Shown here: one piece after another, positions 16,725 through 18,287 of the stretch
Layout: each line of letters opens with the position of its first letter
Numbering within the stretch: position 1 is the stretch's first letter
From: Escherichia phage NHEP11
Length of the DNA: 64,000 bases
Reading direction: 5' to 3' (one strand)
Sequence record: PQ511149.1
Position numbers and translations under genes: made by a program
The notes under the pieces: generated by a model
Told to the model about the DNA's origin: nothing
Seen by the model: the letters and a program-made list of their open reading frames with translations, nothing else
The model's database searches: none

Positions 16725-17295
16725 AAAAGTTTCGGATTTGTTCCCAATTCAGAGAACGAAGATTATTACGAGAGTACTGAATTACTTCAATACCGGCTTG
16801 TTTTAGAATGTCTGCCCAATTTTCAGGAGATCTGTCATATAATTCTGCGTATACAACCTTTTTAATACCTGACTGCGTAATAGCTTTAGTGCAATCAGGA
16901 CATGGAGAAAGCGTCGTATATAATGTAGCACCTTCAATAGAATTACCTTTACGAGCTGCAAACAAAATTGCATTCAATTCTGCATGGATTTCATTATTAG
17001 CAGACCATGCACTATGAGCGGCCCGATGTTCTTTAGCCAAAACAAAATTATCCACCCGTCCAAATGCTGTAGTGCCTTCTTTATGTCCAGCAATGATGAC
17101 CGGGCTTGGTTTATTCTTCAACCAACCATTTTCGGATGCATGTTCACAACAGTTAACGCCACCTGCGGGTGAGCCATTATATCCAGTAGAAATAATGCGC
17201 CCATCTTTTTCAATGACGGCACCAACTTTCCATGAACAACATTTTGATTCTTGAGAAATCAGATATGCAATCTGAAGGTATGTGCTAGCTTTCAT
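16714..17295 (-). CDS. cd: dCMP deaminase
   Basis: 193 aa as in T4 Cd; zinc-binding deaminase motifs HAELNAI and PCPDC. Confidence 0.95.
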   Translation of the reverse strand: MKASTYLQIAYLISQESKCCSWKVGAVIEKDGRIISTGYNGSPAGGVNCCEHASENGWLKNKPSPVIIAGHKEGTTAFGRVDNFVLAKEHRAAHSAWSANNEIHAELNAILFAARKGNSIEGATLYTTLSPCPDCTKAITQSGIKKVVYAELYDRSPENWADILKQAGIEVIQYSRNNLRSLNWEQIRNFCGE

Positions 17296-18287
17296 TATTG
17301 AACCTTATTAATATGAGTTAACAGCTCTTTAGTTTGTTCCCAACTGATGCACGCATCGGTAACGGAAACGCCATAGGACATATTATCAGAAATTTTTTGA
17401 TTTCCTTCATGTAGGAATGATTCTATCATAATTCCTTTGACCAAATCATTAGCTGCTAAATTTTTACCAATACCAATTTGATTGCTATAATGCCCAGCAG
17501 CGTTTGCATGGCTACAGTCAACCATTACATAATGATTCAGACCTACTGCCCTTGCTTTGTTAGAAGCTTCTTGAATATCAGAAGAATGATAGTTCGGGCC
17601 GTTGGTCCCGCCACGCAATACGATATGCGTATTCTGATTACCTTCAGCTTCAACAATGCCTACAGTACCATCGACGTCCATACCCATATACCGATGAGGC
17701 CAGGCGGCACTATACATCGCGTCTGTAGCTACTTTAATAGAACCATTGGTTGCGTTCTTGAAGCCTACGCACATCGGTAGACCTGAAGCAATTTCACGAT
17801 GTGTCTGACTTTCAGTCGTACGGGCGCCAATAGCAACCCATGAGAAAATACCAGAAAGATACTTAATCGTGAATGGGTCTAATACTTCAGTTGCTAATGG
17901 AAGTCCCATACGTAGAAGTTTACGACACAATGTTCGTGCAACTATAAGACCGTGGTTCATATCAAAACTTCCGTCAAGATATGGATCATTTACAAGACCT
18001 TTCCAACCTACGGTAGTTCGAGGCTTTTCAAAATAAACGCGCATCACTAACAGAATATTAGGAAGACGAGTTTGAAGTTCAGCCAGACGTTTGCCGTATT
18101 CAACAGCAGCAATAGGGTCATGAATTGAACAAGGACCTACAACAATAAGTTTGCGTGGGTCTTCACCATTCATAATCGAATTAACTTGTTCGCGATGAGA
18201 AGCCACTTGTGATGCGTAAGCTTCCGACAAAGGAATAATCTCAGCTAGTTCTTTTGGAGAAATAAGTTTTCCGACGACAGGTAACAT
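17295..18287 (-). CDS. 3-deoxy-D-arabino-heptulosonate-7-phosphate (DAHP) synthase, class I (AroG/AroF/AroH-like)
   Basis: 330 aa; motifs KLIVVGPCSIHDP, RVYFEKPRTTVGWKGL, GARTTESQTHRE, GFKN, LRGG, MVDCSHAN, IESFLHEGNQ, TDACISW align with E. coli AroG metal/PEP-binding residues; AAGGA RBS; ATGA coupling to cd. Confidence 0.85.
   Translation of the reverse strand: MLPVVGKLISPKELAEIIPLSEAYASQVASHREQVNSIMNGEDPRKLIVVGPCSIHDPIAAVEYGKRLAELQTRLPNILLVMRVYFEKPRTTVGWKGLVNDPYLDGSFDMNHGLIVARTLCRKLLRMGLPLATEVLDPFTIKYLSGIFSWVAIGARTTESQTHREIASGLPMCVGFKNATNGSIKVATDAMYSAAWPHRYMGMDVDGTVGIVEAEGNQNTHIVLRGGTNGPNYHSSDIQEASNKARAVGLNHYVMVDCSHANAAGHYSNQIGIGKNLAANDLVKGIMIESFLHEGNQKISDNMSYGVSVTDACISWEQTKELLTHINKVQ

Follow-up and report, generated by a model that had tools for sequence, protein, structure and literature searches.

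The 64,000-nucleotide stretch of Escherichia phage NHEP11 DNA analysed here (record PQ511149.1; the whole stretch is referred to as the window) is from a Mosigvirus-type coliphage whose closest relative is NHEP10 (98.6% identical over 22 kb). On its minus strand, at positions 17295-18287, lies an open reading frame (ORF) with an ATG start that encodes a predicted 330-amino acid (aa) DAHP (3-deoxy-D-arabinoheptulosonate 7-phosphate) synthase, DAHPS, assigned by profiles, active-site residues and a structural model to the AroF-like enzymes of type Iα (EC 2.5.1.54 by homology). The neighbouring genes, which likewise lie on the minus strand, come in the order alc, spanins, pseT, cd.4, cd.3, cd.2, DAHPS, cd, 31.1, 31 and rIII, with nrdAB, td and frd at most 10 kb from the DAHPS gene. 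The slot occupied by DAHPS holds cd.1 (112 aa) in T4 and is empty in RB69, where cd.2 abuts cd. A first-pass annotation of the window had proposed an intact class I DAHP synthase here, translationally coupled to cd and sitting where T4 has only small cd.x ORFs; the enzyme class with its catalytic residues, the overlap of its stop with the cd start and the position were borne out by the comparisons that follow.

An intact type Iα DAHP synthase

The translated ORF matches Pfam PF00793 (DAHP_synth_1) with an E-value of 4e-75 (252.6 bits, cutoff 25.5), the NCBIfam aroFGH equivalog TIGR00034 with 428.4 bits (cutoff 173.2) and the subfamily model PRK12755 with 456.3 bits (cutoff 343). It falls below the cutoffs of the AroG-specific model (NF006723; 364.6 bits, cutoff 568) and the AroH-specific model (NF009396; 386.2 bits, cutoff 463). 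All four of the NCBIfam matches are DAHP synthase models, and no model for KdsA, the 3-deoxy-D-manno-octulosonate 8-phosphate (KDO8P) synthase, was among them at E ≤ 0.001. Residues 1-330 align with positions 8-337 of the 341 in PHROG 5045 (phospho-2-dehydro-3-deoxyheptonate aldolase; E 1.4e-181), a family placed in the category ‘moron, auxiliary metabolic gene and host takeover’. Among solved structures E. coli AroF comes first (6agm, E 7e-105), then the DAH7PS of N. meningitidis and E. coli AroG.

The protein was aligned with E. coli AroG, AroF and AroH taken from NC_000913. All eight motifs that the first-pass annotation had quoted (GPCSIHDP, EKPRTTVGWKG, GARTTESQ, GFKN, LRGG, MVDCSHAN, ESFLHEGNQ and TDACISW) are present in the translation, and the metal ligands C53, H260, E289 and D311 align with C61, H268, E302 and D326 of AroG. 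The residues that bind phosphoenolpyruvate (PEP; AroG R92, K97, A164, R165, K186 and R234) and the KPRT motif for erythrose-4-phosphate (E4P; AroG R99/T100) are kept both here and in every phage copy, and the catalytic residues are invariant across 130/130 aligned sequences. The columns of the AroG E24-R124 tetramer salt bridge, looked at for the oligomeric state, are variable in the phage and bacterial sets alike.

An AlphaFold2 (AF2) model of the phage enzyme (mean predicted local distance difference test score 91.3, predicted template-modelling (TM) score 0.91) is a (β/α)8 barrel with internal β-hairpin strands predicted at residues 198-203 and 209-214. Compared with the PDB by Foldseek, it superimposes on the N. 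meningitidis and E. coli DAH7PS structures with a TM-score of 0.95 and a root-mean-square deviation of 1.8 Å. Profiles, alignment and model together confirm the predicted product as a type Iα DAHP synthase in which the metal, PEP and E4P residues are all intact, and the enzyme would be expected to catalyse the conversion of PEP and erythrose-4-phosphate to DAHP and phosphate.

A rebuilt inhibitor pocket and a shortened N-terminus

The alignment was scanned for columns conserved in at least 90% of 29 phage sequences and at least 85% of 98 cellular sequences, and different between the two groups. In the whole protein the scan yields seven columns, and 7/7 lie within AroG segments 144-156, 175-180 and 209-223, which are the three inhibitor-site segments. 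In AroG numbering the changes are P150→I, Q151→K, D155→G, L156→I, S180→P, F209→Y and T223→A, the corresponding residues of the window enzyme being I141, K142, G146, I147, P171, Y200 and A214; the cellular consensus at these columns (P/Q/D/L/S/F/T) is held by 93-100% of the 98 homologues. Five of the seven belong to a literature set of 14 inhibitor-site or feedback-resistance positions (P = 1.4e-6; set from PMC9529685). At all five of the conserved inhibitor-pocket residues AroG P150, Q151, D155, S180 and F209, the phage enzyme is thus different.

Several of these residues have known effects on inhibition. The AroG P150L change gives complete feedback resistance, and S180F and F209A/S are also resistant; Q151 and S180 (AroF Q152 and S181) touch the backbone of bound Phe or Tyr, and a salt bridge from D155 stabilises the inhibitor site (PMC9529685). 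The AroF of C. glutamicum, when given the change equivalent to S180F or to Q151A, escapes inhibition by 50 µM Tyr and is weakly active or unstable, and its counterpart of D155A could not be expressed (PMC9529685).

Furthermore, the N-terminus is shortened. Ten residues lead up to the conserved proline in the window enzyme versus 18 in AroG, 19 in AroF and 17 in AroH, a difference of 8, 9 and 7 residues respectively; residues 1-9 of AroG and 1-10 of AroF have no counterpart, and the first residue of the phage enzyme aligns with AroF Ile11. In all straboviral copies this proline is preceded by 8-10 residues (12 in one intermediate form, P0022), versus at least 16 in the cellular sequences (one has 11), and the full N-terminal extension is lacking in the window enzyme. 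This extension is part of the type Iα allosteric machinery (PMC4735112), and deletion of Ile11 from AroF leads to feedback resistance (PMC10729320). The first-pass annotation had described a truncation in the inhibitor-site region, which is indeed there, and had put it at about 10 residues relative to AroG, where the actual figure is 8. Its guess that feedback might be escaped is strengthened, since the pocket is rebuilt at AroG positions 150, 151, 155, 156, 180, 209 and 223. Because of this rebuilding, and because AroG residues 1-9 are gone, the enzyme is most likely insensitive to Tyr, Phe and Trp.

The pocket segments within residues 141-180 of the window enzyme have conservation scores of 0.97 and 0.96 among the phages versus 0.88 and 0.93 among the bacteria. 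This is the pattern of a straboviral pocket that is altered and then held fixed, as opposed to one that is decaying. Since the phage clade is changed together at all of the positions with known effects (150, 151, 155, 180 and 209), the changes are presumably mutually compensated.

The intermediate form P0022 comes from a T4-like metagenomic contig (L013 2517-3515; L014). Here AroG position 150 is still Pro and the N-terminal lead is 12 residues long, with K151, P180 and Y209 already there; this form may record the order in which the pocket changes were made.

Altered pockets in other lineages

A second phage DAHPS clade is formed by Aeromonas phage HJ05 (OQ594355, a 79-kb genome; L010 3399-4562) and three close relatives (P0121-P0123 among them). 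The HJ05 enzyme is 38% identical to that of the window, is at most 46% identical to its nearest cellular homologue and has a long N-terminal extension. All of the catalytic residues are kept in this clade, and the pocket reads A150, H/S151, P155, F156, P180 and V209; at the same columns 117 cellular homologues have P (107), Q (105), D/E (116), L (108), S (109) and F (110). The HJ05 and straboviral clades were each recovered in 100/100 bootstrap replicates, and were grouped together in 11/100, or in 7/100 when the pocket columns were masked. As there is no support for a joint ancestry of the two clades, the pocket positions were most likely remodelled twice.

An altered pocket was also seen in a small bacterial group, Cobetia spp. 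(P0126, P0130, P0133, P0134 and related sequences), the enzymes of which are 386 aa long and have Q146, A150, A151, G180 and H209. These Cobetia DAHP synthases may be naturally unregulated, or differently regulated, isozymes.

Phylogeny and selection

Alignment with AroG, AroF and AroH and a phylogeny had been proposed in the first-pass annotation as a check on host origin, and they place the phage enzyme in a clade of its own which is not nested in enterobacterial AroF. In neighbour-joining (NJ) trees the 31 straboviral DAHPS sequences are monophyletic in 188/200 bootstrap replicates, and in 200/200 without the long HJ05 Aeromonas branch; the enterobacterial AroF clade is recovered in 200/200, and the two clades appear as sisters in only 33/200. 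Enterobacterial AroF was considered as the donor and set aside, as its grouping with the phage sequences appeared just with the long HJ05 branch in the tree and fell to 33/200 without that branch. In a search of ~5.8 billion proteins, phage-type sequences reach down to ~54% identity with the window enzyme, and cellular homologues from several phyla, enterobacterial AroF included, plateau at 50-54%. Given the separate clade, the weak sisterhood with AroF and this plateau, the phage enzyme is, on the sequence evidence, an old and separate AroF-like lineage with no identifiable donor, and not a recent copy of a host gene. The ratio of non-synonymous to synonymous divergence (dN/dS) of the DAHPS gene is 0.15-0.22 between genera and ~0.3 within the genus, which is indicative of purifying selection.

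Distribution and previous annotation

The phage DAHPS gene is already known and annotated, and the window holds one further copy. By tblastn it was found in 212 records of the phage collection; 139 of these (Mosigvirus-type) have an identity of at least 95%, and the gene is intact in all 139. The copies in NHEP10, Shf125875, JS09 and the O157 typing phages are 99.4% identical to that of the window. The interval between pseT and cd holds DAHPS, usually abutting cd, in five genera or groups: Mosigvirus, Kanagawavirus (Entb_45 and PEi26), the Klebsiella T4-like phages, Winklervirus (X20) and Bragavirus (PM2). Nothing material distinguishes the PHROG 5045 genes of these groups from that of the window; they are the same gene.

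Most of the 139 records label the gene DAHP synthase, AroG or aroF. The labels vary from record to record, with AroG, aroF ‘Tyr-sensitive’, ‘putative aldolase’ and ‘DHAP synthase’ all in use. The ‘AroG’ and ‘Tyr-sensitive’ labels in GenBank are transferred names and not tested properties.

In the literature, the Mosigvirus DAHPS has been listed as a suggested auxiliary metabolic gene (AMG) of unknown function (bioRxiv 10.1101/2020.01.19.911818), and a 2025 paper on the Kanagawavirus copy, again as a suggested AMG, put forward the same aromatic amino-acid hypothesis that is considered in the Discussion (PMC11845039). The phiC120 genome paper notes a DAHPS domain and mentions lipopolysaccharide (PMC8022965); PMC11993411 does not mention the DAHPS gene. 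The gene does have the features of an AMG: it codes for a host-type enzyme, lies between pseT and cd within an early region of the T4 type, and is dispensable in that T4 and the congeneric RB69 are without it. We infer that it is a dispensable accessory (auxiliary metabolic) gene with a benefit to the phage.

Some more distant records (DAHPS identity <60%) were examined and not used. Two contigs filed as ‘Acinetobacter phage MD-2021a’ (CAKLQH020000056.1 and CAKLQH020000043.1) are bacterial chromosome, with clpS, clpA, cobS and cobT. The unverified gut ‘Bacteriophage sp.’ record MT837410.1 is bacterial DNA, with aroD and an ABC transporter adjoining the gene, and MT838377, with just GH25 lysozymes nearby, is ambiguous. 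Misfiled bacterial records such as the MD-2021a contigs and MT837410.1 inflate counts of ‘phage’ DAHP synthases.

A cassette with a relic of a foreign cd.2

Relative to RB69, the window contains a clean 1113-bp insertion flanked by the 13-nt direct repeat ATAATGA(G/A)AGCTA, with one mismatch between the copies. The left copy (ATAATGAGAGCTA; 18399-18411, minus strand) comprises the cd.2 stop and a relic of the cd start. The right copy (ATAATGAAAGCTA; 17286-17298, minus strand), which is 1113 bp from the left, comprises the DAHPS stop overlapping the cd start. At the empty site of RB69 (L012 about 7245-7260) the junction is single-copy and reads ...CTATAATGAAAGCTAGC....

The spacer between cd.2 and DAHPS is filled by a 41-codon ORF (18296-18421, minus strand), residues 6-40 of which match positions 44-76 of the 77 in phrog_1504, the cd.2 family (E 1.8e-5). 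Its identity to the cd.2 of Kanagawavirus and Klebsiella phages is 49-54%, versus 26-28% to the resident Mosigvirus and T4 cd.2, and it stops 8 nt before the DAHPS ATG, the distance for full-length cd.2 in the Kanagawavirus and Klebsiella phages being 9 nt. That the spacer is merely a duplicated cd start is therefore an incomplete description; by the profile match, which covers the C-terminal half of the family, and by these identities it is mainly what is left of a foreign cd.2 gene's 3' half. The cassette is accordingly taken to consist of that 3' half together with DAHPS. It presumably arrived by homologous exchange within cd at one end and, at the other, by joining through microhomology at the cd.2-stop/cd-start motif. 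Some records annotate the 41-codon ORF as a hypothetical protein (phrog_15876).

The cassette is present at full length in 139 records, of about 150 at the genus level; 115 of the 139 reach at least 99% identity, and among the matches listed, every full-length one is at least 98.6% identical. For the neighbouring cd, about 150 records have the full length and only 2 reach at least 99% identity. Synonymous divergence from Shf125875 is 0.013 for DAHPS and 0.278 for cd, and the block of near-identity, which takes in cd.2, the relic ORF and DAHPS, runs from about 18600 to 17400 between flanks of 73-89% identity (cd.3 down to 73%). The pattern would fit a recent acquisition or introgression followed by rapid spread, possibly a sweep; sampling bias may also have a part in it.

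Candidate signals for expression

The DAHPS ATG is preceded at 5 nt by a Shine-Dalgarno sequence, AAGGA (18293-18297, minus strand; read directly). Downstream, the TAA stop (17295-17297) shares one base with the ATG of cd (dCMP deaminase; 16714-17295, minus strand; dCMP_cyt_deam_1, E 1.6e-26) in the overlap TAATG. Upstream, in what is presumed to be the same transcription unit, is the resident cd.2 (18408-18644, minus strand; an ORF with profile matches to DUF7320). A consensus scan found one promoter-like site upstream on the coding strand, TTTACA-17-TACTAT with a TG, between cd.3 and cd.2 (18673-18701, minus strand). It matches the place of an annotated T4 early promoter (a misc_feature at cd.2/cd.3) and its sequence is kept in RB69, and on account of this position and conservation early co-transcription of cd.2, DAHPS and cd from this site appears likely. 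In the 120-nt spacer between cd.2 and DAHPS no regulatory RNA structure was detected (z = -0.58), and no promoter-like or terminator-like site was found on its coding strand.

Discussion

The reading which we favour, and hold to be rather more probable than its competitors taken together, is that the window encodes an active, early-expressed and feedback-desensitised DAHP synthase carried as an accessory gene. In T-even infection host transcription is shut off, as is established for T4, and alc is present in the window; since its transcription has been shut off, the host would be unable to derepress its own aro genes. The surviving host DAHPS isozymes would at the same time remain under feedback control. 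Early transcription of the phage gene, together with cd.2 and cd, would probably start at the promoter-like site upstream of cd.2, with reading into cd through the TAATG overlap, and the gene product would hold the entry step of the shikimate pathway open regardless of the feedback state of the host. The surviving host enzymes, AroB to AroC, could then take DAHP onward to chorismate. What counts for the phage might be a supply of aromatic amino acids to build its proteins or of cofactors made from chorismate, or simply a drain on E4P and PEP.

Several points weigh against this reading. Equivalent substitutions act differently across homologues, and in the C. glutamicum AroF one change by itself, at 151, 155 or 180, is destabilising or crippling (PMC9529685). 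Some pocket residues are retained, namely D146, P147 (AroF-like), L179, G211 (AroF/Tyr-type) and V221, and the lysine at 151 could still bind a carboxylate. The conservation of the pocket among the phages speaks more for a function under maintenance than for a site that is simply broken, and since the Cobetia pocket is altered too, the trait is not exclusive to phages. The trees were made by NJ with simple distances and not by maximum likelihood, and the promoter consensus scan was overall not above chance, position being the basis of the call. Finally, the literature search found annotation-level mentions of phage DAHPS and no functional data (assay, complementation or expression) on any.

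It is possible, if unlikely, that the enzyme is instead an ordinary feedback-regulated isozyme, Tyr-sensitive and AroF-like, which simply adds capacity, and that the pocket changes are neutral lineage markers. AroF is the closest E. coli isozyme (51% identity) and the best PDB match, G211 and P147 are of the AroF type, D146, L179 and V221 are retained, and many GenBank records say ‘Tyr-sensitive’, by annotation transfer. However, both of the side chains that touch the inhibitor main chain, Q151 and S180 (PMC9529685), are replaced; P150 has become Ile, where P150L makes AroG fully resistant, D155 has become Gly and F209 Tyr, and the N-terminal extension is truncated. Such neutrality is also hard to reconcile with 93-100% conservation of the altered positions in the 98 cellular homologues, or with the alteration of the same positions in a second phage lineage.

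Alternatively, the pocket may have been re-tuned to another effector, such as a pathway intermediate or an infection-specific metabolite, through which the phage imposes its own control; this too we regard as improbable. The invariance of I141, K142, G146, I147, P171, Y200 and A214 in a clade whose members are down to about 55% identity, and the greater conservation of these segments in phages than in bacteria, are what such a pocket would show, as positive selection followed by freezing is the expected look of a new function. Against this, the residues are also in the tight-dimer interface, which is a possible source of constraint (PMC4735112), and HJ05 differs at 5/6 of the shared positions, which fits loss of a common ligand over gain of a common new one. 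In its boldest form the idea is likewise improbable: at least two apparently independent phage lineages would have rebuilt the pocket at the same positions, the straboviral one would now sense another metabolite and give the phage control of entry to the shikimate pathway, and the recent near-fixation of the low-diversity cassette in Mosigvirus would mark a selective sweep for this trait.

A different role altogether, with another substrate in the manner of KDO8P synthase, as an E4P/PEP sink or without catalysis, is very unlikely. PF00793 does cover KDO8P synthases, the phiC120 paper mentions lipopolysaccharide (PMC8022965), and the neighbours are nucleotide-metabolism genes (cd, nrdAB, td and frd), in which context a drain on E4P would presumably pull the non-oxidative pentose-phosphate reactions towards pentose phosphates. 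However, the NCBIfam matches are all to DAHP synthase models, at the equivalog level, with none to KdsA at E ≤ 0.001, the metal-binding Cys53, the KPRT motif and every PEP ligand are kept, and the fold is that of DAH7PS (TM 0.95); as for the sink, it would still require the same reaction and differs just in which consequence counts. That the gene is a functionless passenger, hitch-hiked by recombination, is hardly credible: it is dispensable, as T4 and RB69 show, and it arrived as a cassette, but its dN/dS is low (0.15-0.22 from genus to genus, about 0.3 inside the genus), it is intact in 139 records, its catalytic residues are all invariant, and it keeps its slot across five genera and, with very low diversity, is found in about 139 of about 150 genus-level records.

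Among known systems the closest is E. coli AroF (6AGM/6AGL), with which the phage enzyme shares 51% identity, the same Pfam and NCBIfam families, the catalytic residues, the fold and a Gly at AroG position 211. It differs from AroF in having no counterpart of AroF residues 1-10, in having I/K/G/I/P/Y/A at 150/151/155/156/180/209/223 where AroF has P/Q/D/L/S/F/T, and in forming a separate clade outside enterobacterial AroF. AroG has 47% identity and the same catalytic machinery. Compared with its engineered feedback-resistant alleles (P150L, S180F, D146N, F209A and others), the phage enzyme is naturally altered at four resistance or inhibitor-contact positions, 150, 151, 180 and 209. The residues are not those of the laboratory alleles, being I and not L at 150, P and not F at 180, and Y and not A/S at 209, and they are accompanied by D155G, L156I, T223A and the N-terminal truncation, all apparently fixed by natural selection. 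A parallel in concept is PhzC (PA1901) of the P. aeruginosa phenazine cluster, a dedicated DAH7PS reported to be insensitive to aromatic amino acids because its allosteric sites do not form (PMC6435475). Like the proposed phage enzyme it is an extra, special-purpose isozyme outside aromatic feedback; unlike it, PhzC is of type II and not type Iα, is bacterial and serves secondary metabolism, and it lost allostery through omitted helices and a changed oligomer interface, whereas the phage enzyme would have done so through single substitutions that remodel the pocket.

As phage cargo the gene is unremarkable and already catalogued, and its presence here changes nothing. What is added to the record is the clade-specific rebuilding of the pocket, recurring in a second lineage, the structure of the cassette with its foreign cd.2 relic, and the low diversity of that cassette, none of which was found in the literature searched. 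These three points turn a routine annotation into a precise and testable hypothesis, for which RB69 is a natural null in the standard E. coli system. If the inference about the pocket is true, a lytic coliphage overrides the host's allosteric control of a biosynthetic pathway, beyond adding an enzyme to it. The repeated remodelling would then be a natural experiment in how type Iα allostery can be removed without loss of stability, and a stable, naturally feedback-resistant enzyme would be useful for the fermentation of aromatic compounds.

Observations on neighbouring genes

Some details of annotation near the locus differ between records. The dCMP deaminase beside DAHPS is mislabelled ‘ribD riboflavin biosynthesis protein’ or ‘tRNA-specific adenosine deaminase’ in records among KP869111, MG589383 and ON630910. 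At the 3' end of cd in RB69 (L012 about 6743-6800) there is a +1 and then a +2 nucleotide indel relative to the window, which probably explains the annotation of that protein as 169 aa versus 193 aa; this would be either a true frameshift or an old sequencing error. The window's pseT (19384-20283, minus strand) is a 299-aa ORF starting from GTG, as in Shf125875 and RB69 (900 nt); in NHEP10 it is annotated as shorter (777 nt), which is probably a difference in the call of the start codon.

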